Assembly: GCA_964598505.1 (NCBI GenBank)
Contig: CAZRCF010000001.1
Coordinates: 73,480-137,479 of the forward strand
Length of the DNA stretch: 64,000 nt
Reading direction: 5' to 3'
Source of the DNA: an uncultured Lentimicrobiaceae bacterium
Lineage (GTDB): Bacteria; Bacteroidota; Bacteroidia; Bacteroidales; WCHB1-69
The first letter of the stretch is position 1. Every line of letters starts with the position of its first letter. The translations under genes and the position numbers were made by a program. Under the pieces are notes generated by a model. That model was not told where the DNA came from. It searched no databases and was given only the letters and a program-made list of their open reading frames with translations. Positions 256 through 61,993 of this stretch are shown here, piece after piece.

Positions 256-302
256 ACCGGCAAGAGTCTTTTAATTATTTCTAATTAAAGACTCTTGCCG
301 GT
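256..302. terminator. Class-I conserved-stem hairpin (ACCGGCAAGAGTCT...AGACTCTTGCCGGT)
   Basis: Inverted repeat of about 21 bp with one bulge, at a gene end. The stem belongs to the CGGCAAGAKCT family. No clear U-tract. Confidence 0.5.
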
Positions 303-333
303 AAACTAAAAATTAATTAAAAGGAGAAATAAT

Positions 334-606
334 ATGATTTCAATTATTAAATATTTAAGTGAAATGTTAGATGATGATGAATCTCACACAGGTCCTTTAG
401 ATAATAAATATAGAAAAGAAATGGGTCCAGAATATGATAGAAGATTACAAATGATGAAAAAAGCAAAAACTGGAGAAGCAAATCCAACTAACACTGGTAT
501 TGGTAAGAAAATTATTAAAAAAGTAATTCCAACACAACAAGAAGGAACTGAACCTGGAACAATAATAAAACCAATAAAAAAGATAATTGATGCTACTCAA
601 CAATAA
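334..606 (+). CDS. hypothetical Lys-rich small protein
   Basis: ORF with AAGGAG RBS 7 nt upstream of the ATG. Confidence 0.5.
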   Translation: MISIIKYLSEMLDDDESHTGPLDNKYRKEMGPEYDRRLQMMKKAKTGEANPTNTGIGKKIIKKVIPTQQEGTEPGTIIKPIKKIIDATQQ

Positions 607-641
607 GATCTTGCTGATTAAAAAGAGTAATTGGAGGAAAA

Positions 642-2483
642 ATGGGTATTATAATAAAACCTACAGAACTTACTGGAATGGATAAAGTTATTGCAGCTGG
701 AAAAACTGTGAGTGCAAAAACATCGGATGCTGCTTCCTCTTTTGGAAGTTGGGGAGCAGATATGGTTGGTTTTGATGCTGCTGGAAATTGGAGTGTTAGT
801 AATATAGGTGGAGCGCCAGCTATAACAGCAGCTACACCAACTGCAGCAACCGCGCCTGTTAAAGAGAGTTCTTGGTTATCAAATGCTGGATTAACAATTT
901 CAAGTGGGGCTTCATCTCTTATTGATAAAGCTTCTGGTGTAGCAGGAGATGTTGGAAAAGCTTTTTCCGATGCCAAAGGAATGGTTACAGATCAAACAAA
1001 TTCAAATAAGAAATCTTTACTTAAAAAAACAATCAATCCTTGGGAAACTAATGAAAATGATAAAAAATATAAAGATCTTTTTCCAATTGGCAGACCTTGT
1101 AAATTTAATGGAACAATTGATCAATACCAAAGATTTGGAAATTATTTAAGATCTAAAATGAGTGTTATTGATCTTATTCCAGTAGACTATGGTATTGATT
1201 TTGCAAATATGGCAAATATGGTTAAAGGACAAGACTTAAATGGAAAAGATAAGGATGGAAAACCATTAGGAAGCATATATTCTATAGGATATGATGAGCG
1301 GATTAAAAAATATGAAGAATTGTGTAAATATCATGGTTTAAAACCGTATGCCGGTATAAGATTATTTACCACTGATGATACAACAGCTAATGATACAATT
1401 CAAGTAAATTATAAAGAAAGTACATTTAAAGGAGTAACAGATTCTCTTTCCAGTGCAGGTCAAACTTTTAGAGATATTGCAAATTCAGCTCTTGGAACTA
1501 GAACTCAGACACTTACACAAGGAATTCAAAAGGAAGTCGATAAAACTGCTGGAGCTGCGTCTGATGCTTTAGGTGGTGGTGCTGGTATGAAAGCAATATT
1601 TGAAGGCGTTGCATCTGTTGGGTCTGATATGGTTTTAAATGGAAATAAAATGACATTTCCTAAAATTTGGCAAGAAACAACATATGATGGAAATCTCAGT
1701 GTTAATATTAGATTAGTTTCTCCATATGGTCATCCCAAAGCTGTTAAAGAATTTATAATGAAACCATTATCATATTTAGTTCTTTTAGCGGCACCACAAA
1801 CAATTAATGGTGTCACATATGGTGGAAGTATTCCTATAACAATTAAAGCATATGGTTTAAATTATACTGTTGTCGGATCAATTGCATCTATAACGTTAAG
1901 AAGAGGTGGAAGTGATACAAGTTTTAATCTTTACAAACAACCATTAACAATAGATGTATCGATCGCTTTTCAAACATTATTTAATGCTTTTGCAGTTTAT
2001 GATCCTACAGTTGTGAAAGGTTTAAAAGCTGATAAAGATATATTTTTAGATCCTAATTTATCAGAAGCTGGATCTTTAAATTTATGGGATACAGCTAATA
2101 AAGATTCTATGATGGTTTCTCTTGGTACTATTCTTGCATCTCTTCGACCGGTTCGAATAGTTGGTATGGATACAAATGTTGATCCGCAAGTTTATGGAAT
2201 GTTTCAAGCACCTTCTAGAACAGATATTCCAGATGCTCCTGGATTTATACCTCTTACAGGAAATTTAGGAAGTTCAATATCTTCAGCAGTTTCTGCTATT
2301 GGTAGTGTTGCAAGTTTAGTAACAAATGCTCCAAAATTAATTCAACAAGGACTTTCAAATGCAGTTTACAATACAGCAAAAAGTTCGGTAACTTCAATCG
2401 CAGGTACAGCTAGTAGTTGGCTTAATAAATCATCATCTGCTGCAACTTCAGTTGTTAATAAAATAAAAGGAAACTTTCTCTAA
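642..2483 (+). CDS. hypothetical protein of the virion module (Gly/Ser/Ala-rich termini)
   Basis: 613-aa ORF with GGAGG RBS, in the structural arm. No motif recognised. Confidence 0.6.
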   Translation: MGIIIKPTELTGMDKVIAAGKTVSAKTSDAASSFGSWGADMVGFDAAGNWSVSNIGGAPAITAATPTAATAPVKESSWLSNAGLTISSGASSLIDKASGVAGDVGKAFSDAKGMVTDQTNSNKKSLLKKTINPWETNENDKKYKDLFPIGRPCKFNGTIDQYQRFGNYLRSKMSVIDLIPVDYGIDFANMANMVKGQDLNGKDKDGKPLGSIYSIGYDERIKKYEELCKYHGLKPYAGIRLFTTDDTTANDTIQVNYKESTFKGVTDSLSSAGQTFRDIANSALGTRTQTLTQGIQKEVDKTAGAASDALGGGAGMKAIFEGVASVGSDMVLNGNKMTFPKIWQETTYDGNLSVNIRLVSPYGHPKAVKEFIMKPLSYLVLLAAPQTINGVTYGGSIPITIKAYGLNYTVVGSIASITLRRGGSDTSFNLYKQPLTIDVSIAFQTLFNAFAVYDPTVVKGLKADKDIFLDPNLSEAGSLNLWDTANKDSMMVSLGTILASLRPVRIVGMDTNVDPQVYGMFQAPSRTDIPDAPGFIPLTGNLGSSISSAVSAIGSVASLVTNAPKLIQQGLSNAVYNTAKSSVTSIAGTASSWLNKSSSAATSVVNKIKGNFL

Positions 2484-2497
2484 TAGGAGAATCGTTA

Positions 2498-7918: not shown

Positions 7919-10009
7919 ATGGGATTTTTTAGTAGCTTTTTTGGAGATAGTGAGTTAAACAATATTGATGCTCGAATCGATAATGTGATTAATAATTTAC
8001 CAGGAGCTGGTTCAGTAGTACAACCAGATACTATTTCTGGAGATTTTATTAATGCATTTATACAAGAAGCACCAAAAACTGAAATCGACAGACTTCTTGA
8101 CAGTGTATCTGTGTCCAGAGAAAGATTAGAAAGATACAATGTATATGACGAAGCATTTAAATATGTTCCAATTATTAAAAGAATCTTAACAGTATATATA
8201 TCTAATATTCTGCAAAAGAATCCAGTTACAGGAAAATGTCTTCTTATAAAAGAAGCAGAAGATTTAACTGGGGAGAAAAAAGCAGACAATGATACTATAG
8301 ATAAAGCTAAAAAATTTGCTGATGAATGTATGAAAGCTTTTGATATAATTGTTAAGCTTCGTAAGAAGATCTTGCCGAATGAATTAGTATATGGTGATTG
8401 TTTTGTAGAAATTTTAAGTTTAGTCGAAGAAGGAAAGAAAAAAGTAGATCCAAATGCTTCTTTTTCAAATATTGCTTCTGCTATGCCATTATTTGAAGCA
8501 GAATTATCAAATATTAATAAAACAATAGAACAATTGAAATTTCAAAAAGATTACAATGGACAGACAGCCAAAAGTGATCAACTTGATAGACTTTTAATTA
8601 AACTTAGTGAGTATTTTATTGATGTTCAAACACCATCTATCTCTACAAATGTTATAACTGAAGTTGAGATAGATCAAAACACATCAAAGAATGATTCCAA
8701 ACAATCTAGTGATTCCAATAAAGAAACAGAAGAAGACGTCATAACATATAATGATGTTCTTATGAAAATTCACAAACCCCATAGGGTAATAGTTTTGGAA
8801 ACAGATTTTGGATCGTTACTTGGATATTTGATTATAACAAGAGATGAAGTACCACAAACAATTAATCTAACTCAATCACTTTCAACTTTAGTTGGTAGAA
8901 TAACAACTTTACATGGTTTAGATCAAAAATCTGAAAATGTTATTGTTGATAAATTAGTTAGATATATGCTTAAAACCGTATTAGATAAAACTCAGAAATC
9001 TGGTCAGATTAATCAAGCTCAGAATATTGATGAATTATTATCTGGATTACCTCCAGAAGTCCATCAGTATATGAAGAGATTGTTTGTTGAGCAAGGACTT
9101 GCATCTAAAGGTACATTTTATAACAGAATGAGGGTAAGATTTGTTCCTTCAAGTGATATGATTGCCTTTACAATTCCTTCTGCTGAACACGATCCTTACG
9201 GTCAGAGTTTTATTGATGCTTTAGTTTTTCCGTGTAAGCTGTATATTCTGTCACAGTTAAGTAACATTATTATCAAGTTATCACGAGCTGCACCCGTTAG
9301 AAAATGGACGCTAGATATAGGTCAAACACAGATGCAGGCTGGTATGATTCAGAAGTTGAAGCGTGAGCTTTATAACACACGTATTACACTTGATGATTTG
9401 AGTAGCTTTAAGAGCATTCCTAAGATCTTAAGTGATTTCAAAGATATGTTTATATTAAGTAAAGGTGGGCAGAAGGCAATTGACGTCGAGGTTGCTTCTC
9501 ATGGTGATCCAACAATCCGCGTAGCTGATCTTGAGGACTCACGTAGAGAAATTATGAGTCTTTCGGGGATTCCACCGGCATATTTAGGTTACGCTGACGT
9601 GATCGAATTGCGTGAACAGCTTGTTCATACGAATGTGGCTTTCGCAACAGAAATTGCAGATATTCAAGAAGGAGTATCAAAAGGATTAACTAAATTAGTT
9701 GACTTGGTAGCAAGTCATAAAAAATTGGGATTCGTACCCTCTCATTACATTTCTGTTCAATTGATTCCACCGGTAGTATTAATGGTTCAATTGATTGAAA
9801 TGACATTATCATCTATTGGTAATATGACAAGTGCACTCCAAAGCATGAATATACCTTTTGATCCATATTTCTTATTAGAGAAGTACATTCCCTATATTGA
9901 TTGGAGATCTTTTAAAGAAAAAGCAGTACAATTTAGAACAGAAATGGATACAGAGGCAACTCTAAATTCTGGTAATTCTCCTCCTGGTGGTTTTCCAGGT
10001 GGACAATAA
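7919..10009 (+). CDS. portal protein (assigned by position and size)
   Basis: 696-aa ORF immediately upstream of the prohead-core, protease and capsid genes, as in the T4-type head module order. Confidence 0.6.
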   Translation: MGFFSSFFGDSELNNIDARIDNVINNLPGAGSVVQPDTISGDFINAFIQEAPKTEIDRLLDSVSVSRERLERYNVYDEAFKYVPIIKRILTVYISNILQKNPVTGKCLLIKEAEDLTGEKKADNDTIDKAKKFADECMKAFDIIVKLRKKILPNELVYGDCFVEILSLVEEGKKKVDPNASFSNIASAMPLFEAELSNINKTIEQLKFQKDYNGQTAKSDQLDRLLIKLSEYFIDVQTPSISTNVITEVEIDQNTSKNDSKQSSDSNKETEEDVITYNDVLMKIHKPHRVIVLETDFGSLLGYLIITRDEVPQTINLTQSLSTLVGRITTLHGLDQKSENVIVDKLVRYMLKTVLDKTQKSGQINQAQNIDELLSGLPPEVHQYMKRLFVEQGLASKGTFYNRMRVRFVPSSDMIAFTIPSAEHDPYGQSFIDALVFPCKLYILSQLSNIIIKLSRAAPVRKWTLDIGQTQMQAGMIQKLKRELYNTRITLDDLSSFKSIPKILSDFKDMFILSKGGQKAIDVEVASHGDPTIRVADLEDSRREIMSLSGIPPAYLGYADVIELREQLVHTNVAFATEIADIQEGVSKGLTKLVDLVASHKKLGFVPSHYISVQLIPPVVLMVQLIEMTLSSIGNMTSALQSMNIPFDPYFLLEKYIPYIDWRSFKEKAVQFRTEMDTEATLNSGNSPPGGFPGGQ

Positions 10010-10025: not shown

Positions 10026-10487
10026 ATGTTTTTATGTGAAATATTAATGGAACAACAGCAAGCTCCTGCACCGCCTCCGAAAGTTCCTGCACAACATGTT
10101 CACGTTCATGTCCAACAACCATCTGCTCCAAAAGAAAAAAAAGAACCAGAGCCAAAACAACCTGTTCAAGTTCAACAACAGGTTCCTGTTCAAGCTCCTG
10201 TTCAAGCGGACCAATATGGTGATGAATATGATCCTGAATTAGATGCAGAAGAAATACCTGAGGCGCCACCATTTCAGGAGATCTTGCCGATGAAAAGGTA
10301 TTATTTAATTGGAAGATTAAGAGAACTGAAATCCCGTTTAGATCAAAATAATATTCAAAATACAGATTTTAATATTATAATGAGATTTATTAATAATTTA
10401 TCTTATAGTTCTTTAGTCTCATTAACTGGCGGGATAATTCCAGTTGTTGAAGATCAATTAGCGAGGTTAACAACTAATGTACAATAA
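10026..10487 (+). CDS. prohead core / scaffold-like protein (Pro/Gln-rich, acidic)
   Basis: 153-aa low-complexity ORF with AGGAGG RBS, between the portal and the protease. Confidence 0.45.
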   Translation: MFLCEILMEQQQAPAPPPKVPAQHVHVHVQQPSAPKEKKEPEPKQPVQVQQQVPVQAPVQADQYGDEYDPELDAEEIPEAPPFQEILPMKRYYLIGRLRELKSRLDQNNIQNTDFNIIMRFINNLSYSSLVSLTGGIIPVVEDQLARLTTNVQ

Positions 10488-12886: not shown

Positions 12887-12894
12887 ATTAAAAA

Positions 12895-12940
12895 TACCGG
12901 TAAGATCTGAATAAGTTTCTTTATTTAGATCTTGCCGGTA
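12895..12940. terminator. Class-I conserved-stem hairpin (variant CCGGTAAGATCT / AGATCTTGCCGG)
   Basis: Long inverted repeat 9 nt after the capsid gene stop. Confidence 0.55.
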
Positions 12941-12967
12941 TTAAATACTTCTTGAATCGAGTAAGCT

Positions 12968-14434: not shown

Positions 14435-14584
14435 ATGTCCATATTGGATATGCCATATCCTCTATATAATGATATAATTTTAAAACAAATAGAAGAAAAG
14501 AAACGTGAAAAGAAACAATATGATCAAAAAATGTCTCAAGTAAAGGCATCACAAAGTAAGAAATCTTCACCGAAAAGAAGGTAA
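14435..14584 (+). CDS. hypothetical small basic protein (start uncertain)
   Basis: The track ORF 14309..14584 overlaps the upstream gene, so the internal ATG at 14435 is preferred. The RBS is weak. Confidence 0.3.
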   Translation: MSILDMPYPLYNDIILKQIEEKKREKKQYDQKMSQVKASQSKKSSPKRR

Positions 14585-15130: not shown

Positions 15131-15139
15131 GTTAAAAAT

Positions 15140-15184
15140 ATCGGCAAGATCTTAGACTAGAAACAGTCTTAGACTCTTGCCGAT
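15140..15184. repeat. Class-I hairpin, one of two near-identical 45-nt copies
   Basis: ATCGGCAAGATCTTAGACTAGAAACAGTCTTAGACTCTTGCCGAT differs at one base from the copy at 21766-21810. It sits between convergent genes. Confidence 0.6.
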
Positions 15185-15197
15185 ATTCAAAATATAA

Positions 15198-17048: not shown

Positions 17049-18755
17049 GTGTCGACCGATATTAATGATATTAATGGAAGTTCAGAAAATGAAAGTATAG
17101 GGTTAACACCTCTAACTATTGACGAAGTTAGAAATTTTTTTAATACCTATATTAAACCCTTTTCACCATATCAAGATGAAAAGGTTTATGATACAATAAT
17201 TAATAATCTTACGGAATATTACCACACTCAGATGTATTTGAATGTCCCTTCAAAATTAAAACAACTTTATGAAGAAGCAAATTTTGATTCTCTCGAAATA
17301 TATAATTTATTATTAATTGCAATAGGAGTTCCAGCAGCAATTATAAATACTATCTCTTTTAATGATAAAATAATATTTTTAAAAACATTTTCTGATTTTG
17401 AGAGACATAAAGGGACAATATCATTTTTCAAAAAAGTTGGAGAAGCATTTGGTGATAAAGTTAGTATTTATGAGTTATTTATTGATCTTGAAGATTCAGT
17501 ATGGGTTTTTAAACCTGTTATGATATATCTTAATAGTGATATGATTTTAAATACTACTTCAATTCCATATGAAACAGTTCAAAATTATGTACCATCTCTA
17601 CTTCTTAATACAGATCAATTGGATACTTTATATGAAGAAGAAAAAGTAATCTTGCCGATAAAATCAAATTTAATACTACTCGACAATGATATGGTAACAA
17701 ATATTTCAGTTATATATGATGTTATTGTTGCAATTTTTCTTCATACATATAAAGATAATTATATTGATTTATATTTTAAGGATACAGTTCAAGCTGTTCA
17801 ATTAAAAACAATATATTTTCTATGGTATTATTTATTAACAGATTACAATGAAATATCTTGGACAGCTTTTAATCCAACAAATTTATTAAGATTTACATAT
17901 GATGATATTGGTTTTCCATCTTTTATTGGAACAACTCCAACAACAATAGAAAATTTATCATTGATTATTGATAGGTATACTGATATAGGAATTAAAAATA
18001 CAACAACTAGAGATGTTGATAATTCTTTAAGTGAAAGAGATGAATTATATAAAGATATTTCAACGGCATTTTATATATTTACAGATTCATCTGCAACAAC
18101 TTTAGAAGAAATGTATGATGAATTAAAACTTATGAATATGTCGTTAATTTCATATATTGATGATAGAATTTTAAATACTTCTATTGGAATAAAAGCTGAA
18201 ATTAATTTAATATTATCTGAAATTTATTCATCTTTAATATTATATGCATCTGGATATAATTCTGATATATATTTTTCACAATATGTTGATTATTTTTTAA
18301 AATACTTACCACAAATAAGAATTAATCCAGAAGATACGGTAACACATACAATAATATATAATTTAAAACCATTTCATGTTGAATTGTATAATAATAATAA
18401 CATTGGTCTGAGAATTCAAGATAAATTTGATCAAATATTTATTGATGATGAAAAAGAAAGTTCGATCTTATTCAAACTTATTAAAGCCAGCGCTTTATCA
18501 TTTTCAGATGAAATGTTGTTTGAATATGAATTTACTGGAATCTCGGACATAACACTTTTAGAAGATAATATTTATAATTTAGTCGCAGTGTTACCAGATA
18601 GTAATTTTTTATTTAATGATGAAATGATAAATAATGTAGATATGAATAAAGCAAGTAGTTCAGAGATATCAGAAAATGTAAGAAATGATATTATCGAAGA
18701 TACAGTTTCTGATATGGTGATGAGAAGTGTATTTACAGTAACTAAAGTTCCATAA
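17049..18755 (+). CDS. hypothetical tail/baseplate-module protein
   Basis: 568-aa ORF with a GTG start after AAGGAG. Confidence 0.55.
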   Translation: MSTDINDINGSSENESIGLTPLTIDEVRNFFNTYIKPFSPYQDEKVYDTIINNLTEYYHTQMYLNVPSKLKQLYEEANFDSLEIYNLLLIAIGVPAAIINTISFNDKIIFLKTFSDFERHKGTISFFKKVGEAFGDKVSIYELFIDLEDSVWVFKPVMIYLNSDMILNTTSIPYETVQNYVPSLLLNTDQLDTLYEEEKVILPIKSNLILLDNDMVTNISVIYDVIVAIFLHTYKDNYIDLYFKDTVQAVQLKTIYFLWYYLLTDYNEISWTAFNPTNLLRFTYDDIGFPSFIGTTPTTIENLSLIIDRYTDIGIKNTTTRDVDNSLSERDELYKDISTAFYIFTDSSATTLEEMYDELKLMNMSLISYIDDRILNTSIGIKAEINLILSEIYSSLILYASGYNSDIYFSQYVDYFLKYLPQIRINPEDTVTHTIIYNLKPFHVELYNNNNIGLRIQDKFDQIFIDDEKESSILFKLIKASALSFSDEMLFEYEFTGISDITLLEDNIYNLVAVLPDSNFLFNDEMINNVDMNKASSSEISENVRNDIIEDTVSDMVMRSVFTVTKVP

Positions 18756-21755: not shown

Positions 21756-21765
21756 CAAAAATATA

Positions 21766-21810
21766 ATCGGCAAGATCTTTGACTAGAAACAGTCTTAGAC
21801 TCTTGCCGAT
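21766..21810. repeat. Class-I hairpin, second near-identical 45-nt copy
   Basis: ATCGGCAAGATCTTTGACTAGAAACAGTCTTAGACTCTTGCCGAT, 11 nt after the sheath stop. Confidence 0.6.
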
Positions 21811-21841
21811 TATAAAAATTTAAATAAGGAGATGTTTATTT

Positions 21842-24265: not shown

Positions 24266-24334
24266 CGAAGTGAATACTAGAAATAATAGCAATAAAAATT
24301 CGGCAAGGTCTAGTTAAAGACCCTGCCTGTAGTG

Positions 24335-25047: not shown

Positions 25048-25074
25048 TGTTATTATCCTTTCATAATGATAATT

Positions 25075-25105
25075 ATCGGCAAGACCTTTATAAGATCTTG
25101 CCGAT
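25075..25105. terminator. Class-I conserved-stem hairpin
   Basis: ATCGGCAAGACCT TTATA AGATCTTGCCGAT. Confidence 0.55.
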
Positions 25106-25109
25106 AAAA

Positions 25110-28893: not shown

Positions 28894-28919
28894 TTATTTC
28901 CTTTCTTTTTAATTCAAAT

Positions 28920-28952
28920 ATCGGCGAGAGCTTTTTATTAGCTCTCGCCGAT
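28920..28952. terminator. Class-I hairpin, variant stem CGGCGAGAGCT
   Basis: ATCGGCGAGAGCT TTTTATT AGCTCTCGCCGAT. Confidence 0.55.
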
Positions 28953-28957
28953 ATAAA

Positions 28958-30073: not shown

Positions 30074-30089
30074 TCTATTAATATTAAAA

Positions 30090-30123
30090 ATCCGGCAAGC
30101 TCTAGTTTAAGAGCTTGCCGGAT
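30090..30123. terminator. Class-I conserved-stem hairpin
   Basis: ATCCGGCAAGCTCT AGTTTA AGAGCTTGCCGGAT. On the minus strand it is followed by TTTTTA. Confidence 0.6.
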
Positions 30124-30127
30124 TAAA

Positions 30128-30400: not shown

Positions 30401-32653
30401 TTACTTCTCCTTTATTAAATGTTGAATTCTCTCGATAACTTGTTCTGGTTGGATACTTGTTGTACAAATAAAATTATTTTTGCGTGGACAGAAATCCCAA
30501 TTTGGTTTATCTAGATTTATCGTTGGATCATTAAAACAACCATGACATACGTCTGTGTTTATAATTCTTATACAATCTTGCATTTCAACAAATGTTTCTG
30601 TACAACCAGAAATTAGAACTATTTGTTTTCCCAATCCCCAAGCCAACCAAGCTAATCCATTACTTGTTGTCATTAAGAATTCACAATGTTGAAGATTATT
30701 AACTGTAGTTTCAAAAGTTTTACCAGTTTGATGGACCACTCTCTTTAGAAATGATTTCTCTTTAGCAACTGTCATTACTTTATATCCAAGAGAATTCAAA
30801 TAATCAACTACAGTTTGCCAACCTTTTGGATGATTCCAATACTTACATCTAAAAGTTGAATGTTCTGCAATACAAACATATTTCTCTTTTATTGGTCTTT
30901 TTAATTTCTTCACTTGCATATCTGGTCTAATTTCTTTATATTCTAAACCAAGATAATCTGTTGCAGCTTGCTGTAAAGGTATTAAATGCCAATTATTCTT
31001 ATTAATGTCAAATTGTTTATCTTCCATTCGAATACTATATGTTGCATAAATATTATCAACATTAATACAATAAGGAATAAAATTAATTTCAGGATATGCT
31101 TTTATAAATAAATCATTCAATCCTGTTGCAAGAAAAACGGTACAATTATATTTCTTTCTAAATTCTTCAGCGTAAGGCATCCAGCAAATTCGATCACCAA
31201 TTGCAGTGCTATCTAATACAATAATAACTCTTTTGCCGGTAGGATCAAATAAATGATCTGAATAAACTTCTTCATTTACTTCAACTCTAACTTTCCAATT
31301 AACATGATACTTAATATTAGTTTTAACCCAAGTGTGTGTATCTATTGTTTTTTGATGTAATACTTTATTTGTATTATTATCAATAAATTTAACGTTATAT
31401 TGTAATTCCTTTGGACCATTAATATCAACCATTGCTCCATTATGAAATGAGTATTTAACTGATTCTTCTGGAGATCTATATATACGTTTATAATGATCTT
31501 TTACATCCTCTTCTGTAATTTCTTTTATATGGGTTAAAGCTATATTGACTGCATTTTCCCATGAGAATTTTTTTCTAATTATTTTTGAATCGGCAAGAGC
31601 TTTAATTTTATAATCATTATAATTTTCATATACATCTCTCATTACATGACCAAGATGTTCAAAATCGGGTTCTGCATATGTTCCTTCTAGTTGTTGATCT
31701 TTTTGCATAAAAACTTCTTTTGGCGGCAAATGATCTTTAATGTCAACCATGTGAGAAACATTTTTTGCAAAATGTAATTGCGCACCATAGTTTGAACATA
31801 TAGTTGGCATACCACTAGCAATAGCTTCTATAAGTGGTAAGCCCCAACCTTCTGCTCTGGCGCATGATATCAAGCAATGTCCGGATTTTAAATGAGAAAC
31901 ATATTCTTGCCGACTTGGAAAATGAAGAATTTTAATTCTATCATCTATAAGTTTATGTTTTCTTAAACGTTCTTCAGTTGATTTCATTCCATCTGCTGGA
32001 AACGGATTATCAACAGAAATAATTAAATCTACAGGTTCGGATCTTTTAAATGTATTTAAAAATGCTCGAATAGTTTCTGTTGTAGCTTTTCTGTAATCCC
32101 ATCTTCCAAATATTAAAAACTTAAATCGTCTATCAGTATAATGTTTTAATTTAAGTTCTGGTTCTCCTGGAAAGAATACATCTCCATCAACACCTTCTGG
32201 AACTATTTTAACTAGTCTTTCATCACAACCTTGTTCTATGGTGCAATCTCGTTGCCATTCTGTTGGCACCCAAAGTTGAAGACATTTTTTCCATTGATTA
32301 AAAAATTTCTCGGGTTGACGTGTTATTTCCCATACATTATAACCAATAACTGGTTCATCATAATCTTCATAATAATAGAAATGATTTGTTTCCATTAAAA
32401 TAATATTTAGTATTTTATCATATTCTTGTTTAGCGAAATTACTTCCGAATTCCCAAGGAGCTTCTTTCCAAGTTTGTTTGATAACCATTTGATTATGTAA
32501 ATCATTTAAATGATCGAATTTGTCTATCCATGTGAAATTTCGGATTCTTGTTGGAATATGAGTATTAAGTCTTGTGAAAAAATCACGACTGTGAGCCGCA
32601 TATCCAGTATGTGATATGAAACTACAATGGCCTATTATTCTATCAAATAGCAT
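30401..32653 (-). CDS. two-domain glycosyltransferase (N-terminal GT-B/GT4-like; C-terminal half possibly heptosyltransferase-like)
   Basis: EGWGLPLIEAIASGMPTICSNYGAQLHF is the GT1/GT4 E-x7-E region. The C-terminal DSTAIGDRICWMPYAEEFRKKYNC resembles TibC-type O-heptosyltransferases from memory, with low certainty. Confidence 0.65.
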   Translation of the reverse strand: MLFDRIIGHCSFISHTGYAAHSRDFFTRLNTHIPTRIRNFTWIDKFDHLNDLHNQMVIKQTWKEAPWEFGSNFAKQEYDKILNIILMETNHFYYYEDYDEPVIGYNVWEITRQPEKFFNQWKKCLQLWVPTEWQRDCTIEQGCDERLVKIVPEGVDGDVFFPGEPELKLKHYTDRRFKFLIFGRWDYRKATTETIRAFLNTFKRSEPVDLIISVDNPFPADGMKSTEERLRKHKLIDDRIKILHFPSRQEYVSHLKSGHCLISCARAEGWGLPLIEAIASGMPTICSNYGAQLHFAKNVSHMVDIKDHLPPKEVFMQKDQQLEGTYAEPDFEHLGHVMRDVYENYNDYKIKALADSKIIRKKFSWENAVNIALTHIKEITEEDVKDHYKRIYRSPEESVKYSFHNGAMVDINGPKELQYNVKFIDNNTNKVLHQKTIDTHTWVKTNIKYHVNWKVRVEVNEEVYSDHLFDPTGKRVIIVLDSTAIGDRICWMPYAEEFRKKYNCTVFLATGLNDLFIKAYPEINFIPYCINVDNIYATYSIRMEDKQFDINKNNWHLIPLQQAATDYLGLEYKEIRPDMQVKKLKRPIKEKYVCIAEHSTFRCKYWNHPKGWQTVVDYLNSLGYKVMTVAKEKSFLKRVVHQTGKTFETTVNNLQHCEFLMTTSNGLAWLAWGLGKQIVLISGCTETFVEMQDCIRIINTDVCHGCFNDPTINLDKPNWDFCPRKNNFICTTSIQPEQVIERIQHLIKEK

Positions 32654-35254: not shown

Positions 35255-35262
35255 ATGATGTA

Positions 35263-35295
35263 ATCCGGCAAGATCAAGTTAAGATCTTGCCGGAT
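35263..35295. terminator. Class-I conserved-stem hairpin
   Basis: ATCCGGCAAGATC AAGTTA AGATCTTGCCGGAT. The core and loop are identical to the copy at 41317-41347. Confidence 0.6.
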
Positions 35296-35305
35296 TAAAT
35301 ATCTT

Positions 35306-41291: not shown

Positions 41292-41316
41292 ATTATCTCC
41301 TTATAAAAATATTTTA

Positions 41317-41347
41317 ATCGGCAAGATCAAGTTAAGATCTTGCCGAT
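41317..41347. terminator. Class-I conserved-stem hairpin
   Basis: ATCGGCAAGATC AAGTTA AGATCTTGCCGAT. Confidence 0.6.
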
Positions 41348-41366
41348 TAAAAATGAACATAGTATT

Positions 41367-42996: not shown

Positions 42997-44240
42997 ATAT
43001 AATCATCTCCTATTGTACTTGGTGAAAACTTTTTCTTTGATTTATTTTCTTGAGTTGATGTGATAATCATTTCACCAGTTTCAATTGCTTTATTTCTTAG
43101 ATCTTTGACTCTTTTTTCAACTTCTATATATTCATTTGATTTTGTTTCTTCAATAATAGCTTTCTTTGGTCTAGATTTATCAATTGTTTCGTCTACGAAT
43201 TTCTTTAACATATTATTAATTGTTGGACTTGGTTTTTCATGTTCTTCTGAAACTTCTTCATGAGGAATTTCATATTTAACTGCTTCAATCTTATCATCAA
43301 ATAATTCTTTCTCAATTAAAGCAATTCCAAGATTATCATATATAAATACTTTTCGTTCAACAATCGAAGGAATACCAAAGAACATTTTATTGATAATCTT
43401 TATTGTTGGTTTATAATTACTATTATAATCTCCACCAATGTTCGGATCATCAACAAATCTATTAATTGAATAATATAATCCTATTAAAGGTTTATTACCA
43501 CAAGTGGCTCTTAGATCTCTTAGATTTTTATAATTGTTCTTTTGAGCAAATTTCATTTCAGTAATCTCATCATCAATTAATCGAAGAATTAAATAATCTC
43601 CACTTTCTTCTCCAAATTGATCAATTTCATCCTCTTCTGTTTCAGAATTAATAATTTCATTTGTAGTTTCTGGTTCTTGAGATGATAATTGTTCTTCTTT
43701 TGAAGTTATTTCATCGAAAACTTTTTGTTCTATTTCTTCTTTAACAACTTCTGTTAATTCTATTTCCGGAAGTAATGATTTAGCAGGATAATTAGAATTA
43801 TCATGATGTTTACCTTTTTGATCATACATAGAGATTTGAAAAATAGGATCAGAAGATTTATTATGTTTCTTTATCCAAGATTTAATAAGTTCTATATCCT
43901 TCATAGTTTTTTCTAATTCAAGATTAAATATTTCGTTTTCTGTTCCAATATACTTATCTTCTGCTAATTTATCTACAATTTTTTGATAGTTTTCTTTAAA
44001 TTGCTCTTCTTTATCGGCAAGAGCTTTTATTGGATCTATAATTTTAACGGTTTCAGGATTTTTATTTTCAAAATCCAAAGCTAGTGGGATACAATCAAGG
44101 CAGAACATTCCGCTTTCGACATATTGCTTTGTTTGATCCCCGTTAAGAATTCGACTTTCAAAGATTCTAACTTTATTAGCATCCTCGAAATCAATACCGC
44201 ATCCATCGCAGCTATATAGTGGCTTATATTTTAATACCAT
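42993..44240 (-). CDS. hypothetical protein with an N-terminal zinc ribbon and an acidic linker
   Basis: CDGCG ... CLDC, 415 aa. Confidence 0.55.
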   Translation of the reverse strand: MVLKYKPLYSCDGCGIDFEDANKVRIFESRILNGDQTKQYVESGMFCLDCIPLALDFENKNPETVKIIDPIKALADKEEQFKENYQKIVDKLAEDKYIGTENEIFNLELEKTMKDIELIKSWIKKHNKSSDPIFQISMYDQKGKHHDNSNYPAKSLLPEIELTEVVKEEIEQKVFDEITSKEEQLSSQEPETTNEIINSETEEDEIDQFGEESGDYLILRLIDDEITEMKFAQKNNYKNLRDLRATCGNKPLIGLYYSINRFVDDPNIGGDYNSNYKPTIKIINKMFFGIPSIVERKVFIYDNLGIALIEKELFDDKIEAVKYEIPHEEVSEEHEKPSPTINNMLKKFVDETIDKSRPKKAIIEETKSNEYIEVEKRVKDLRNKAIETGEMIITSTQENKSKKKFSPSTIGDDYI

Positions 44241-56225: not shown

Positions 56226-58319
56226 TTATTTGCCTCCTTTTAAAGATTCTAAATACATTTCAGCAATGAGCTGGGCTGCTTTCAAACTTAGACGTCCTTG
56301 GGTAGTTATACTCTTAGCTAATTGTTTGTTACTAAATCTATAACTTTGTTGACCAAATAATCCATATAACGTATTCATTGTGACCTTGATTGCTTTTTGC
56401 CGCATCTCAAAAAATGAATAATCATTAGTTCCTTTTTTAAATTGATCTCTTTCTTTCTCATAATTATTTCTAAGGTCTTTAAGATTTTTTAAGAAATCAA
56501 TAAATAATCCTTTTTTAGTTTCATGTTTTACAAACAAGCAACCAGATAAAGATAATATTAAATTATTTGTTTTCAAATAGTTCTCAAAAGACTTTACAGG
56601 AATTTTTATTATCTTAATTGTTGGTTTTAAAATATCTTCAATTATATATAGAAAATCTGGATCTGTCGGCAAAGAATCATTTATAAGATACTCATTACAA
56701 AAACTATTGTATTCTTTACTGTTCGGATGTACATCATCAAATAAATCAATCATTGGTAAGAAATATCTTCTTATAATCATGTAATCTTCAATCTCTTGTT
56801 GATTAAATAATTGAGATAATGATTTCTTATGATCTTCTATTTTCTTCAATAAATATGCTATAATTAAATAATAATTTTGAACGTATTCACCTTTGTTTTG
56901 TGGCTTTAATTTATCTACATATTTGACAGTCATTTCATATAAAGAAAGATATATACTCTGTGGTATCGGCATTTTAGCTATTAGAGCTTTATCTATTGCT
57001 GCTAAAAACTTATATGTTAACGGGTCGATAATTTTTCCAAAGAATGTATCAAACGATATATTTAATTGAGTAATCATTGATGGATATAATGAACTAGCAT
57101 CCAAATCTACTATGATACCATCTTTACTTGTTAAAATTTGTGCTCGTGATTGTTTCACATAAGCACCTGGAAAATGACCAGTAATTGAACGATAAGTTTG
57201 TTGACTTATTTCTTTTATGGTCTTTTTCATTTGTTTTGGGATATAAAGAGTTGCCATTTCATCATCTGAAATAGATACGGTCGATTCATCTAATATTCCA
57301 AATCTTGTAAATTTACCTTCTTCATTTAATTTGTAATTAACATAAGTATCAAATAAGATTGACGAACCTCTTAAAGAAGCAGTAAATGGTGTTTTCATTA
57401 ATCTTCTTAAGAGATTGTAAGATTCAATATGTTTTAATTTTGAATTCATTCTAACACATAAAGCTACGTCAATTATATTATATAGAAGAAAATTAACAGG
57501 ATCTTTTTCATAGAAAGTATCAAGAGTCATTCCCTCTGATTTATATTCTTTTTTCCTTAAATCTAATTCTGCATCAGATACAAAATCTAATGCATAACTA
57601 CTCTGTTTTGACCCCATATTTAAACCACCGTCGTCTCTTGGTTTGTACGCGTATAAGAGATCTAAAACAGGGTATTCTGGAATCTTAATTAAGAATTCAT
57701 TATTGAATTTTTCAACTTTTATTTTACCGAATTGTGATAAGATCTTGCCGATTTCAACTTCATTCTTATTTAATATATTACTTAATCTAAAATAAATATA
57801 AGGCAAATCGAATCTATCAGTTGCCCAACCAGAAAGAACACTTGGATCAATTTCTTTAATTTTATTCCAACATGCTTTAATTAAATCTGTTTCATTATTA
57901 AAAACATATATTTCCAAACTCTCACCATCAACAATATATTTATCATCGGCAAGATCTTTTGTAAAAGCTTGTATAAGATTCGGAATTTCTTCTTTTTCTG
58001 GAAATTTTTGAATATTACTATGTCCTAATAAATAATAAGATCTAAATATTTTATCAAATGTGTTATAAATTGTGATTGCATTTATTGGAAATTTAGCTAT
58101 TTCTGGTTTTGGAAATATTCCAGCATTGCTAGTGTATACTTCAATATCCAAAAATAAAATATTCAGTTGTTGATCTTTATCGATCACATCTGTTCTATTT
58201 TTTAAATAATTTTGTATACTATAATATTGTTGATAGTCTAAATCCAATCCATAAACTTGATACGGGTTTATATTCATATCTTTAAACTCTTGAAAAGAAA
58301 AAGATTGCAAAGCTTTCAC
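56226..58319 (-). CDS. family-B DNA polymerase, N-terminal fragment (3'-5' exonuclease plus palm motifs A and B)
   Basis: Exo I is FLDIEVY, Exo II is DRFDLPYIYFR and Exo III is LLYNIIDVA. Motif A is DLDASSLYPSMI and motif B is KVTMNTLYGLFG. The ORF ends before motif C. The GTG start is uncertain. Confidence 0.9.
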   Translation of the reverse strand: MKALQSFSFQEFKDMNINPYQVYGLDLDYQQYYSIQNYLKNRTDVIDKDQQLNILFLDIEVYTSNAGIFPKPEIAKFPINAITIYNTFDKIFRSYYLLGHSNIQKFPEKEEIPNLIQAFTKDLADDKYIVDGESLEIYVFNNETDLIKACWNKIKEIDPSVLSGWATDRFDLPYIYFRLSNILNKNEVEIGKILSQFGKIKVEKFNNEFLIKIPEYPVLDLLYAYKPRDDGGLNMGSKQSSYALDFVSDAELDLRKKEYKSEGMTLDTFYEKDPVNFLLYNIIDVALCVRMNSKLKHIESYNLLRRLMKTPFTASLRGSSILFDTYVNYKLNEEGKFTRFGILDESTVSISDDEMATLYIPKQMKKTIKEISQQTYRSITGHFPGAYVKQSRAQILTSKDGIIVDLDASSLYPSMITQLNISFDTFFGKIIDPLTYKFLAAIDKALIAKMPIPQSIYLSLYEMTVKYVDKLKPQNKGEYVQNYYLIIAYLLKKIEDHKKSLSQLFNQQEIEDYMIIRRYFLPMIDLFDDVHPNSKEYNSFCNEYLINDSLPTDPDFLYIIEDILKPTIKIIKIPVKSFENYLKTNNLILSLSGCLFVKHETKKGLFIDFLKNLKDLRNNYEKERDQFKKGTNDYSFFEMRQKAIKVTMNTLYGLFGQQSYRFSNKQLAKSITTQGRLSLKAAQLIAEMYLESLKGGK

Positions 58320-60788: not shown

Positions 60789-60843
60789 GTTATCTCCTTT
60801 CGATTGAGAATAAAATTTATGAGCGGAATTGCCCATATACAAA

Positions 60844-60870: not shown

Positions 60871-60911
60871 AAACAAAAAATAATTCCCCTGCCCATTTTC
60901 ATGGTTAGGGG
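60871..60911 (-). terminator. rho-independent terminator closing the ncRNA unit
   Basis: On the minus strand, CCCCTAACCATGAAAATGGGCAGGGG is followed by AATTATTTTTTGTTT. Confidence 0.6.
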
Positions 60912-60914
60912 AAA

Positions 60915-61420
60915 ATTAGTGAGCATACGAAAGGAGATTCAAAGTTAAACTTTGATCTTTTAATTTTTATTTATAAAATTTAGTCGTATGTAATGCTCGC
61001 TAGCTTTTTAATTTTTTTAGTGACCACTCTTTCGAGTGGCCAAATTGATGCGGATAGTTTATAGAACCCAAGTCTATTGCGGATTTCTCCGCGGCATATG
61101 TAATCCACATCAGCTCTATCGAAACGGATTTCTCCGATTGATTGTGTAACTGCTCCCTATAAAGAAGCAGTCAAATTGGCAGGGATAATTTTGCCGCCAG
61201 CTTTCGTTGGCTTGCCATTGGAGCGAGTTTCCCCGCGATTTTAATTAATTAGATTAATTAGTCGTATGTAATCCCTGCAAGCGAATTTTGCTCCGCGACC
61301 TCGCCGAACCTCATTGGGTTTGACACTCACCGGAGAGCTAATTATAAATGAAACTATCCCGTCGAACAGTTTCACTTTCAAATAAGAGATGAATCCGTCG
61401 ACTCATTCTTATTTTATAAA
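60915..61420 (-). ncRNA. large structured ncRNA candidate (about 500 nt) upstream of rsr
   Basis: It is bounded by promoter box 61421-61441 and terminator 60871-60911, is GC-enriched and has no RBS-led ORF. Four GAAA-capped hairpins lie at 61024-61039, 61079-61092, 61125-61136 and 61196-61211. A 14-nt exact repeat TAGTCGTATGTAAT lies at 60981-60994 and 61259-61272. Two 5' hairpins have related loops, GTCGACGGAT and GTTCGACGGGAT. Confidence 0.45.
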
Positions 61421-61441
61421 AGTAATATTTCTATATGAAAC
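61421..61441 (-). promoter_or_regulatory. conserved promoter-like box (ncRNA unit)
   Basis: AGTAATATTTCTATATGAAAC on the + strand. Its flank ATTTCTATATGAAACTTTTGAAT is identical to the tRNA-Gln box. Confidence 0.55.
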
Positions 61442-61462
61442 TTTTGAATATCAGAAAATTAT

Positions 61463-61993
61463 CTATTTGATTTTATTAATGAATTCCATAAAAAGGGAAC
61501 TAGAAATTTTAGTTTCTTTAGTAGGCGGTGCGAGCTGAGGTTTAGTTTCTTCTGGAATCTTTGGTATAGCTGATTTCATAGTTATTTCATGAATTCGTTG
61601 TCCCATGATTGCTTTCATCTTTGGAATATTAAGTAATTGTTCAAACAGGTCCAATCTTGTAAAGCGACTAGTTTGATAACCTTGATCCGCTATAATAACA
61701 TGAATTTTTTTCCAAGCTCTTGCCGATTGCAATATTGAATTTGCTTCATTAAATGTAATTTCCCTTTTAAGAGAGCTTGCTTTTTCTCCTTCAATATATT
61801 TGAATCGATTCATATCTACGACTTTATCAAGAACATCTTCAATCAATCCTAATATCAATCTTTCAGGAATTTCAAACTCTTTTTTATCATTCCATCTATC
61901 ATCAAGATTTTTAATATCGATTTTCAATTTAATAGCTTCTTTGATTGTTATTTTCTTTTTCTTTGGATCATAGATACTTAAATTAAGTTTCAT
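61463..61993 (-). CDS. hypothetical protein
   Basis: 176-aa ORF. Confidence 0.55.
   Translation of the reverse strand: MKLNLSIYDPKKKKITIKEAIKLKIDIKNLDDRWNDKKEFEIPERLILGLIEDVLDKVVDMNRFKYIEGEKASSLKREITFNEANSILQSARAWKKIHVIIADQGYQTSRFTRLDLFEQLLNIPKMKAIMGQRIHEITMKSAIPKIPEETKPQLAPPTKETKISSSLFMEFINKIK

Follow-up and report, generated by a model that had tools for sequence, protein, structure and literature searches.

The window, a stretch of 64,000 nucleotides, is part of the 205-kb genome of an uncultured myovirus distantly related to T4, and it carries a repeat system that is real and undescribed. A single 13-nt word, ATCGGC(A)AGAKCT, is employed in the phage and throughout its clade both as inverted pairs behind genes and as single copies inside genes. 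The best reading, for which the sequences give roughly an even chance, is a gene-end RNA hairpin that would form or stabilize 3' ends and is built from a word read by a putative clade-conserved factor.

The G+C content of the window is 29.95% (the earlier note had judged about 30% by eye). Among words of k = 7-10 none is more over-represented than CGGCAAG/CTTGCCG, which has 39 copies on both strands of the window where more than 35 had been claimed. With at most one mismatch, ATCGGCAAGAKCT has 21 matches in the window, 12 of them perfect, compared with 0.06 in shuffles; the core CGGCAAGA has 32 copies compared with 0.45 ± 0.67 expected from 100 dinucleotide-preserving shuffles of the window. 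Exact counting has thus confirmed the enrichment. The orientation ratio of 23:9 fits the 3.4:1 expected from coding cost alone; there is no intrinsic strand preference. The 21 loci are more evenly spread than random (CV 0.61 vs 0.93, P = 0.011), a weak test since hairpins are confined to gene ends.

At least 12 gene-end hairpins with the same stem had been proposed, of which 11 are real, namely those at 256, 12896, 15140, 21766, 24299, 25075, 28920, 30091, 35264, 41317 and 52003, with energies of -18 to -32 kcal/mol and z-scores of -5 to -11 against shuffles. The "weaker copy" at ~18785 was rejected as a family hairpin; it is a single degenerate arm and its partner is absent. The second class that had been described, with unique stems and U-tracts, exists at eight positions. 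The hairpins and one relic are as follows.

253..305, + strand: family hairpin of the ACCGGCAAGAGTC variant, stem long and extended, CGGCAAGA in both arms, between ORF 19-237 and ORF 334-606; -32.4 kcal/mol, z -11.0
12892..12943, + strand: family hairpin 9 nt past the stop of the major-capsid-like gene (11294-12886); -31.3 kcal/mol, z -10.3
14545..14574, + strand: family-hairpin relic inside the 3' end of ORF 14309-14584, from alignment with relatives
15137..15187, unstranded: family hairpin between convergent genes 14594-15130 (+) and 15198-15971 (-); z -10.4
21762..21814, + strand: family hairpin 10 nt past the tail sheath stop (19719-21755); z -9.9
24302..24327, - strand: diverged family hairpin GGCAGGGUCU...AGACCUUGCC after gene 24335-24586 (-); -18.4 kcal/mol, z -5.1
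25073..25107, - strand: family hairpin 4 nt past the stop of gene 25110-25490 (-); z -8.1
28917..28955, - strand: family hairpin, CGGCGAG variant, after SLT-domain gene 28958-29464 (-); z -7.5
30088..30125, - strand: family hairpin, TCCGGCAAGCTCT variant, after gene 30128-30400 (-); z -10.2
35258..35300, - strand: family hairpin after small ORF 35306-35458 (-); z -8.9
41311..41353, - strand: family hairpin after the RlaP-like gene 41367-42338 (-); z -10.9; an identical copy in L150
52002..52036, - strand: family hairpin after tRNA-Gln (52049-52124) and before gene 51113-51982 (-); z -6.9
22759, 22809, 44497, 45887, 50159, ~58380, 58970 and 60884: second hairpin class, unique stems and U-tracts

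Position and strand both point to RNA. At 56 co-directional junctions across the clade the hairpin stands mostly 4-11 nt past the stop codon; in long spacers it adjoins the stop in 10 cases vs 5. Where G·U on one strand and A·C on the other make a difference of at least 2 kcal/mol, the transcribed strand is the stabler by 19:2, equivalent to at least 10 independent variants vs 2. In the hairpin at 12892..12943 only the sense strand can form a U·G pair (-27.0 vs -17.9 kcal/mol), that at 25073..25107 folds with -19.6 kcal/mol sense vs -15.5 antisense, and the arm mismatch at 24302..24327 is G·U on the sense strand, with a U5 run next to it. Since arm mismatches become G·U pairs in the transcribed strand, the hairpins act as RNA, and this polarity together with stop-codon proximity narrows their role to an RNA-level gene-end function; from position and polarity we infer a function at 3' ends. 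Averaged over 61 family hairpins from the clade, the first 8 nt downstream contain 3.3 T and 3.7 A, so that most indeed lack a U-tract, as the earlier note had said, and U5 runs follow three copies (24299, 30091, 52003). A family hairpin without a U-tract is therefore not a classical intrinsic terminator. A ribosome terminating 4-11 nt upstream would partly melt the hairpin, which complicates a simple terminator model. No promoter module was found at the family hairpins.

The stem recurs behind the capsid, sheath and tRNA-Gln genes of relatives in which loops, flanks and neighboring genes have diverged to 65-80% nucleotide identity, and it is kept at orthologous and non-orthologous gene ends across the clade, which supports the claim that these are not independently evolved ordinary terminators. 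The capsid gene end has a family hairpin in L127, L062 and L121, the sheath-end orthologues in L127 and L059 share the stem and differ in their loops, and the tRNA-Gln hairpin is kept in four lineages. Among 45 hairpins, double compensatory changes occur at 6 of 11 pairs, pairs 4, 5, 9 and 10 are invariant or broken in one sequence only, and CGGC and AGA are nearly fixed. Such double changes include ATGGGTAAGAG...CTCTTACCCAT in the L269 orthologue of the tRNA-Gln hairpin and, at 28917..28955, pair 7, changed from A-U to G-C in both arms.

Single copies of the word lie inside genes. All ten intragenic half-sites of the earlier list (8367 through 61714) lie where it placed them, as do the looser copies at 27567, 42244, 51212 and 53205.

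8367..8379, - strand: isolated site, 1 mismatch, in gene 7919-10009 (+)
10279..10291, - strand: isolated perfect site in gene 10026-10487 (+), no partner arm
17647..17659, - strand: isolated site, 2 mismatches, core intact, in gene 17049-18755 (+)
31589..31601, + strand: isolated perfect site in glycosyltransferase gene 30401-32653 (-); 12/13 in L145
40434..40446, + strand: isolated site, 1 mismatch, in UDG-domain gene 39258-40781 (-)
44013..44025, + strand: isolated perfect site in gene 42993-44240 (-)
48676..48688, - strand: isolated perfect site in gene 47550-49337 (-)
57740..57752, - strand: isolated perfect site in the DNA polymerase B (PolB) gene (56226-58319, -), ATC GGC AAG ATC (IGKI)
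57945..57957, + strand: isolated perfect site, also in PolB, antisense to the mRNA (KDLAD)
61715..61727, - strand: isolated perfect site in gene 61463-61993 (-); perfect in L266, 12/13 in L262

The seven perfect sites compare with 0.003 expected from codon usage, a ~2500-fold excess that makes chance untenable, as had been argued. The sites fall in at least five frame/orientation classes, in agreement with the reported use of both orientations and different reading frames, and no partner arm was found locally. Single sites of the relatives' own occur at ~70 times chance; the density of perfect sites is 0.11 per kb here vs 0.012 per kb in a 285-kb relative, and most sites are not kept at deeper divergence. 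They align to relatives without indels and originated by point substitutions; an insertion-type origin was not found in these alignments. Two were created by synonymous changes to rare codons. At site 8367 (KILPN), L129 has AAG ATT TTA CCG AAT vs AAG ATC TTG CCG AAT in the window, and at 17647..17659 L127 already has TTGCCGAT.

Site 57740, the sole run of four G/C-ending codons in the PolB gene, is perfect in four independent lineages (L266, L262, L260 and L269). G/C-ending codons elsewhere keep the third base only 30-49% of the time, and overall only 3-6% of 13-mers are conserved. Site 57740 is under synonymous-site constraint, a result rigorous for this one single site, in a locally conserved PolB stretch. 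L259 and L260, though 99.6% identical, differ at this site, where two of their three PolB differences lie. Site 57945 is 12/13 in L266 and L262, and neither L260 nor L269 has it; in L258 a site occurs at a non-homologous position, 10 codons off. Stem conservation, intragenic enrichment and synonymous constraint support the proposed sequence-specific function of the word.

Lineage variation and turnover of the single sites could reflect templated mutation or short-patch conversion from hairpin arms. Continuing conversion could also mimic constraint at single sites. It is possible, if doubtful, that only the hairpins are functional (as RNA) and that the single sites are functionless by-products of such templated mutagenesis or short-patch gene conversion, for which each genome's 20-60 identical hairpin arms would provide ectopic donors wherever coding sequence is partly similar. 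Substitutions cluster in the word and leave the flanks unchanged, three of them in the ELAD codons of site 40434 (GAA TTA GCA GAT in L185, GAA CTT GCC GAT in the window); the two differences between L259 and L260, the turnover of positions and the lineage-specific density also fit, and L258 single sites match the local hairpin variant CGGC[G/C]AGA. Quasi-palindrome-templated mutation has a precedent in phage T4, where it was reportedly first described by Ripley and colleagues. However, site 57740 keeps its four rare codons in four lineages at an expectation of ~1-6% per lineage, sites 61715 and 57945 are also largely kept, the core 8-mer is still enriched without hairpin-type flanks (~10 copies vs ~0.5 expected), and spacing tends to be even and not clustered by donors.

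The hairpins spread by copying and replacement, and this part of the suggested "small mobile palindromic element" stands. The copies at 15140 and 21766 are identical at 44 of 45 positions, and those at 35264 and 41317 have the loop CUUAACUUGA in common. Loop variants are genome-specific, with 4-12 repeats per genome, and identity between copies stops sharply at the stem ends. The 15140 copy stands where two relatives (L064 and L127) have an unrelated canonical bidirectional terminator (A-tract/hairpin/T-tract), and the relic at 14545..14574 belongs to a decay series, with a full hairpin in L064, the right arm only in L127 and AAATCTTCACCGAA in the window. All of this would suit a selfish REPIN- or MITE-like miniature element, non-autonomous and bounded by 13-bp terminal inverted repeats, whose copying would depend on a transposase gene elsewhere, the terminator-like effect being incidental and the single sites decayed or aborted copies. 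Such an element is nevertheless unlikely: no Y1/RAYT or other transposase was found among the 51 window ORFs or among 112 ORFs covering ~160 kb of the 285-kb relative, flanks of the hairpins are complementary and not direct repeats, so that there is no target-site duplication, many copies hold orthologous positions over deep divergence, the single sites arose by point substitution, and selection on the RNA is indicated by the G·U polarity and by how the copies are oriented relative to transcription.

Very improbable are purely DNA-level protein sites of the operator, stoperator or roadblock type, in which the hairpin potential would be irrelevant. The strand-indifferent ratio of orientations and the 13-bp asymmetric word, a typical footprint of a monomeric DNA-binding domain, would fit. 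Stoperators of Cluster A mycobacteriophages are co-oriented with transcription and repressor-bound. Many-copy phage sites have precedents: mycobacteriophage repeats likewise number at least 30 copies of a 13-17-bp sequence between and inside genes, and the 17-bp palindrome of Cluster O, with its fixed 3-bp spacer and no orientation to transcription, fits a dimeric DNA-binding protein (PMC4351075). Unlike these, the hairpins of the phage vary in their loops, have extended stems and show RNA-strand polarity (the 19:2 ratio); arm-to-arm spacing varies from 5 to >19 nt, pairing reaches past the word and is preserved by compensatory double changes, and a DNA site needs no strict post-stop placement. 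Where the earlier note had listed many possible functions, the evidence narrows the hairpins to an RNA-level gene-end role and speaks against a promoter, a target for nicking and a dimer operator of fixed spacing.

Ordinary intrinsic terminators homogenized by concerted evolution, with chance or compositional copies in genes, would suit the gene-end position, the strong G+C-rich stems in an A+T-rich genome, the three U5 runs and the one replaced canonical terminator, but this explanation is scarcely credible and already contradicted by the enrichment and conservation tests, since most copies lack a U-tract, canonical terminators with U-tracts and unique stems coexist in the same genome, the stem is identical across lineages with largely randomized synonymous sites, and the intragenic copies are strongly enriched and partly conserved.

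Strong hairpins without U-tracts directly after coding regions are also found under the Mimivirus "hairpin rule" and at T7 RNase III sites, where mRNA 3' ends are defined or protected by them. In Mimivirus it is the structure that is conserved and not the sequence; the T7 sites, about ten in number, have internal loops and are cleaved by the host RNase III. We know of no intragenic half-sites in either system. The PeSL/PmSL cassettes of T4-like phages are likewise repeated intergenic stem-loops that can move or recombine between gene junctions (PMC2839356; PMC4122927). PeSLs, however, are composites of a simple stem-loop, a sigma70-like early promoter and a Shine-Dalgarno sequence, with low-complexity stems (Gn-loop-Cn), in hyperplastic regions and without intragenic half-sites, whereas the present hairpins have a specific 13-nt stem and no promoter module, stand just 17-35 nt ahead of the next start codon and follow core structural genes. 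REP/REPIN elements, thought to stabilize mRNA or attenuate transcription, are similar as short, high-copy extragenic palindromes at gene 3' ends without U-tracts, long persistent, whose replicating unit is the inverted-word doublet and whose singlets are remnants (PMC3116915, PMC3337134, PMC3733652). They differ in that the phage system has no RAYT found, no GTAG or CGTC tag and a half-word that is not itself palindromic, in that its single copies are intragenic and derive from point mutation, and in that a phage is the carrier. Similar in layout too are the uptake sequences DUS of Neisseriaceae and USS of Pasteurellaceae, asymmetric words of 9-13 nt, enormously over-represented across the genome, with single copies in genes in both orientations, one favored by coding constraints, and inverted pairs as gene-end hairpins (PMC2346458; PMC3630211). 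DUS and USS serve bacterial competence machinery, whereas the present word is unrelated, belongs to a lytic-type phage clade and has a larger share of its copies in hairpins. To our knowledge, no uptake-like process is known for this clade.

Under the preferred reading of a gene-end RNA hairpin, two inverted copies of the word, usually a few extra pairs, and a variable A/T-rich loop, set 4-11 nt past the stop, would be transcribed within the mRNA and fold to an RNA hairpin of 13-22 bp that most likely defines or protects mRNA 3' ends, whether by blocking 3' exonucleases, by marking a processing site, or by terminating transcription with the help of a factor or in an attenuating manner. The genes served would include highly expressed ones (capsid, sheath) alongside many others, and the hairpin can replace a canonical terminator. 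The stem is constrained in sequence as well as pairing, and a putative factor conserved in the clade or its hosts would read the CGGC...AGA duplex; no candidate for such a protein turned up, and most window proteins have no Pfam or PHROG match. The single copies, in either orientation, are made by point substitutions, including silent rare-codon changes, and at least one is held by selection on the nucleic acid. Most simply, the same putative factor would also read the word as double-stranded DNA, which would give the single sites a DNA-level role. The resulting layout would be like that of bacterial DNA uptake sequences, with single words in genes and inverted pairs as gene-end hairpins.

The enrichment of CGGCAAG claimed in the earlier note was borne out by exact k-mer counting against an order-3 Markov background: the heptamer and its complement occur 39 times in the window, which has a G+C content of 29.95%, and lead the over-represented words for k = 7 to 10. 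In dinucleotide-preserving shuffles of the window, 0.45 copies of CGGCAAGA were expected and 32 were seen; for ATCGGCAAGAKCT with at most one mismatch, 0.06 were expected and 21 were seen, 12 of them perfect. The hairpin consists of two inverted copies of the word (A/T)(T/C)CGGC(A)AGA(T/G)CT, paired as the base of the stem, to which copy-specific pairs are often added; the A/T-rich loop measures 3-9 nt. Eleven of the twelve hairpins named in the first reading are real, with free energies of -18 to -32 kcal/mol and z-scores of -5 to -11, whereas the copy at ~18785 is a lone degenerate arm. All of the half-sites noted inside genes were found in place, and the hairpins of the second class, each with its own stem and a U-tract, exist as described. 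The 21 motif loci of the window (11 doublets, the family hairpins, and 10 singlets, the lone copies inside genes) show a more even spacing than random placement gives (CV 0.61 versus 0.93 ± 0.18, P = 0.011), which is a weak test because the hairpins are confined to gene ends. The 10 kb flanking the window on each side show the same pattern: topoisomerase genes contain single sites, and a hairpin precedes the terminase gene.

The window is contained in the 205,069-bp metagenomic contig ena:ERZ27262927:k141_123413, the genome of the T4-like phage, of which 84 kb was read. Its genes include those for the tail sheath, a capsid-like protein, the prohead protease, a DnaB-like helicase, SSB and a split family-B DNA polymerase (PolB). 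Genes run rightwards to ~22.7 kb and leftwards from ~23 kb, and where these two blocks meet there are two canonical terminators, placed back to back. Among GenBank phages, megablast gave no matches, tblastn with the capsid protein gave none, and nothing was nearer to the window PolB than T4-type gp43, to which it is 23-27% identical. Scanning genome contigs for the hairpin pattern did not lead to a host, as the hits were chance matches in high-GC genomes and low-GC contigs that are misbinned relatives of the window phage. Bacteroidota rarely use strong Shine-Dalgarno sequences; such sequences are present in the phage genes, which argues against a Bacteroidota host.

Genes of the window referred to in the text (coordinates, strand, feature)
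56226-58319, minus strand, split family-B DNA polymerase, exonuclease domain and start of the polymerase domain
33935-34810 and 33278-33931, minus strand, PolB fragment and adjoining HNH_3+AP2 gene (Pfam)
25517-26185, minus strand, second HNH_3+AP2 homing-type endonuclease gene (Pfam)
58779-60842, 35961-37247 and 41367-42781, minus strand, RNA repair and quality-control set

The PolB fragment matches Pfam DNA_pol_B positions 223-356 and lies 21 kb from the N-terminal gene at 56-58 kb, directly beside a homing-type endonuclease gene, the second such gene being at 25.5 kb; L258, a relative, has an N-terminal PolB gene of like length (706 aa). The RNA repair and quality-control set comprises an RtcB ligase, an RlaP-like nucleotidyltransferase, an HD phosphohydrolase and a Ro60-vWA-like protein. 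Directly after the Ro60-like gene a 'tRNA-Met' (59148-59222) lies within a structured non-coding stretch of ~300 nt, which ends in a U-tract terminator and might serve as a Y-RNA-like partner; over all 450 nt of 58779-59228 the folding z is -3.6, and a Cys/His-rich ORF of ~42 codons follows the stretch. Neighbouring, overlapping genes for a ThiF (E1-like) and a JAB-domain protein (45937-47584, minus strand) constitute a ubiquitin-like conjugation/deconjugation pair, which is kept in L258.

Within the genes of the window, 7 perfect and 3 near-perfect 13-mers were found, with 0.003 perfect copies expected under a codon-usage model. They fall into five or more classes of frame and orientation, and the peptides that they encode are unrelated (IGKI, YRQEL, QSARA, xILPx and xLAD), so that a P-loop or other peptide motif was rejected. 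Hidden partner arms were rejected as well: duplex energies with the ±70-nt flanks were no better than with random flanks, and no single site has a partner nearby. Across the clade 23 single sites are antisense and 9 are sense, as compared with the 3.4:1 expected from coding cost alone; codon cost thus accounts for the antisense bias and no strand preference is left. A bias towards the 5' half of genes was also discarded, the window sites all lying at ≤0.55 of gene length and those of the relatives ranging from 0.02 to 0.93 with a mean of 0.45.

The single sites align to relatives without indels. Two of them were born by silent changes to rarer codons, from AAG ATT TTA CCG AAT to AAG ATC TTG CCG AAT and from GAA TTA GCA GAT to GAA CTT GCC GAT. 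At deep divergence the positions are not kept, and the relatives' own single sites run at ~70 times chance; in PolB, two lineages have a site ten codons apart. Constraint is demonstrated rigorously for one single site only, that in PolB, where ATC GGC AAG ATC, the gene's only run of four G/C-ending codons, stands unaltered in four independent lineages (82-86% amino-acid identity in PolB); at other G/C-ending codons for conserved residues the third base is kept in only 30-49%, and 13-mers are perfectly conserved in only 3-6%. Two further single sites persist, intact or almost so, in one or two lineages. Two metagenomic genomes, L259 and L260 (site at 10559-10571 in each), are 99.56% identical over 19 kb and show only three differences in PolB; two of these, neighbouring and silent, convert ATT GGT AAG ATC T to the perfect word ATC GGC AAG ATC T.

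These observations suggest that single copies of the word are maintained in coding DNA whichever way they are oriented, a pattern that would fit recognition of a 13-bp duplex on DNA better than a role in RNA. According to the main rival explanation, the single sites stem from templated mutation or short-patch conversion off the many hairpin arms, which would account for the clusters of multi-base changes, for the turnover of sites and for densities that differ between lineages, but less easily for the retention of rare codons. A broader proposal is one that we consider rather unlikely: a phage 'self word', the viral counterpart of bacterial uptake or Chi sequences, would be read on double-stranded DNA in either orientation by a clade-conserved protein, selection or molecular drive would hold it at a ~3-kb spacing across 205 kb despite rare codons in essential genes, and the inverted pairs at gene ends would have been co-opted as the standard RNA 3'-end hairpin. 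Candidate readers would be a terminase, a recombination or replication factor, or a nucleoid-type protein.

The same stem occurs in a 285-kb IMG/VR contig, the largest relative, with ~30 hairpins in the ~160 kb (~56%) that was retrieved and read, in an 87-kb contig and in several smaller viral contigs. These relatives, and the contigs from bacterial bins described below, are 65-80% identical to the window DNA where alignable, and their hairpin density is inflated because they were partly retrieved via the motif itself. Behind the capsid, sheath and tRNA-Gln genes, the hairpin keeps its position across relatives, with the same stem and different loops, and one orthologous hairpin carries the double compensatory change ATGGGTAAGAG...CTCTTACCCAT. 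The loops are genome-specific and recur within each genome, which indicates intragenomic copying. One junction shows the element at successive stages of decay: one relative has it whole, another retains half of it, and the window has a relic. The lineages have not drifted to stems of their own, as selection on structure alone with concerted evolution would allow, and this argues that something reads the sequence, putatively a factor conserved in the clade or in its hosts that recognizes the stem sequence-specifically. Comparison of ~70 window proteins with Pfam and PHROG gave no RNA-binding or obvious sequence-specific protein except the two HNH+AP2 homing-type endonucleases, and nothing ties these to the word.

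Scans for sister clades with variant words (G or C at position 7) yielded scattered single matches and a few within the same clade, and such clades were dismissed. Contigs of ~30% G+C with the same hairpin and with proteins 45-65% identical to those of the phages were also found in metagenome-assembled genomes (MAGs), namely at loci L145, L147 and L175 (JAGVVH01, 'Bacteroidetes WAS_Bin_9'), L150, L185 and L186 (CAZFOG01, 'Nitrospiraceae') and L190 ('Geobacteraceae'). Because proteins at this level of identity are common to them and these phages, the phage-like contigs in MAGs of three unrelated phyla are probably binning contaminants. The 285-kb relative, IMGVR_UViG_3300021520_000002 (loci L012-L142), encodes an Apyc1-like anti-Pycsar protein. 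It also has genes for a FolE2 GTP cyclohydrolase, a QueD-like 6-pyruvoyl-tetrahydropterin synthase, a radical-SAM protein and a Vut_1 transporter, a set that suggests synthesis of 7-deazaguanine and perhaps modification of DNA.

The copying could be explained by a selfish element of the REPIN or MITE kind, but this leaves the point-mutation origin of the single sites unexplained, and neither a transposase nor target duplications were found. REPIN-RAYT systems include a Y1 (RAYT) transposase gene, which the repeats typically flank; among 51 ORFs of the window and 112 ORFs drawn from ~160 kb of the 285-kb relative, none had a Y1_Tnp or other transposase domain. The arms act as terminal inverted repeats, as in a MITE, but the flanks are complementary (AT..AT, AC..GT, TC..GA) and not direct repeats, so that the target-site duplication of a MITE is absent.

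All 11 family hairpins of the window are intergenic, and the genes upstream of them include those for the capsid-like, tail sheath, SLT-domain and RlaP-like proteins and tRNA-Gln. Over 56 co-directional junctions from the window and its relatives, the distance from stop codon to hairpin is mostly 4-11 nt and that from hairpin to the next start mostly 17-35 nt; in long spacers the hairpin lies near the stop codon in 10 versus 5 cases. A promoter role was rejected, since the hairpins hug stop and not start codons and an alignment of 47 oriented sites has no conserved position at all outside the word, and so none resembling a -10 or -35 element, hence no attached promoter module. A transition in one arm gives G·U on one strand and an A·C mismatch on the other. 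The transcribed strand is the stabler one in 19 of the 21 hairpins whose strands differ by at least 2 kcal/mol, the 19 cases representing at least ten independent variants from several genomes and the exceptions numbering two; copies of one variant never differ in their orientation to the genes. RNAalifold on 45 sense-oriented hairpins gave 11 pairs, of which six show double compensatory changes, while pairs 4, 5, 9 and 10 are invariant or broken in one sequence only. The G·U polarity points to a hairpin that works as RNA. A pure DNA operator is argued against by this polarity, by the covariation and by the variable spacing of the arms.

Family hairpins have the stem-loop of an intrinsic terminator but mostly lack its U-rich tract. 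Over 61 of them, the 8 nt downstream of the stem contain on average 3.3 T and 3.7 A, and ~13 have at least five T in these 8 nt, so that a U-run accompanies about one copy in five. A consensus terminator scan of 1-20 kb detected no family copy. Canonical terminators with unique stems are present alongside them.

Canonical hairpin-plus-U-tract terminators with unique stems (window coordinates)
7056-7090
22759-22840
44497-44527
45887-45915
50159-50200
58970-59003
60884-60913

With its compensated changes, the hairpin at 7056 (CCGACGAGATC...GATCTCGTCGG) resembles a diverged member of the family. At junction 15130/15198, where genes converge, two relatives have an unrelated A-tract/hairpin/T-tract terminator and the window has a family hairpin, which is identical at 44 of 45 positions to the copy behind the sheath gene, the identity ending exactly at the stem ends. 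This replacement of a terminator by a near-identical copy indicates that the element fills the terminator niche and spreads by copying. The family hairpin is not a classical terminator, yet appears interchangeable with one. The account with the best support is that the inverted pairs would be transcribed and, as strong hairpins in the RNA, would set or shield the 3' ends of mRNAs or attenuate read-through with the aid of a factor; sequence-specific reading of the stem and maintenance of the single copies, as described above, are its other two parts.

Bacterial uptake sequences, which a competence receptor for DNA uptake recognises, occur both as single words in genes and as inverted pairs that give hairpins at gene ends (PMC2346458). 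The element resembles these DUS and USS in being an over-represented asymmetric word with intragenic singles and intergenic inverted pairs; its word differs from GCCGTCTGAA, AAGTGCGGT and ACAAGCGGT in our own comparison, and its carrier is a phage. With REP and REPIN elements it shares the form of a high-copy, U-less palindrome at gene ends (PMC3116915, PMC3733652), and with REPIN-RAYT systems the inverted-word doublets and the singlets, although the singlets here are intragenic; the doublets stand 4-11 nt after stops. The REP end tag is GTAG or CGTC (PMC3733652), whereas the stems of the window start with (A/T)(T/C)CGGC and have neither tag. The nearest phage precedent for mobile intergenic stem-loops is the PeSL of T4-type phages, which has an attached early promoter and low-complexity stems (PMC4122927). 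Unlike PeSLs, the hairpins of the window have no module of sigma70-like promoter and Shine-Dalgarno sequence and no low-complexity stem, and the next start is mostly 17-35 nt away. PeSLs lie preferentially in hyperplastic regions beside indels; the family hairpins follow both core genes (capsid, sheath), at kept positions, and small variable ORFs. Repeats of Cluster O mycobacteriophages are likewise distributed in many copies inside and between genes, but have a fixed spacer and no transcriptional polarity (PMC4351075), in contrast to the variable arm spacing and RNA-strand polarity found here. Chi-like hotspots are words of 5-8 nt that depend on the RecBCD or AddAB of the host and are over-represented, with strand skew, in its chromosome; the 13-nt extent of the word argues against a simple Chi. 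The covariance models of Rfam 15 gave no family match, only three tRNAs and one chance miRNA match at E ≤ 1, and in the literature searched the word was absent save for one unrelated primer. The element is akin to known repeated palindromic gene-end elements of phages and bacteria, and belongs to none of the uptake sequences, REP/REPIN, PeSL or Cluster O repeats.

Phages are known to carry intergenic hairpins in repeated copies, and competent bacteria to have over-represented words that also occur inside genes. To our knowledge, no described system joins a sequence-fixed stem, RNA-strand polarity, conservation over a deeply diverged clade of uncultured jumbo phages and selected single copies in essential genes. 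The word is a cheap clade marker, which revealed the misbinned phage contigs in Bacteroidetes, Nitrospiraceae and Geobacteraceae MAGs, and the hairpin might be used as a portable module for 3' ends. Should the word have a dedicated reader, that factor would offer a new handle on how large phages punctuate and stabilise their transcripts, or mark their own DNA.
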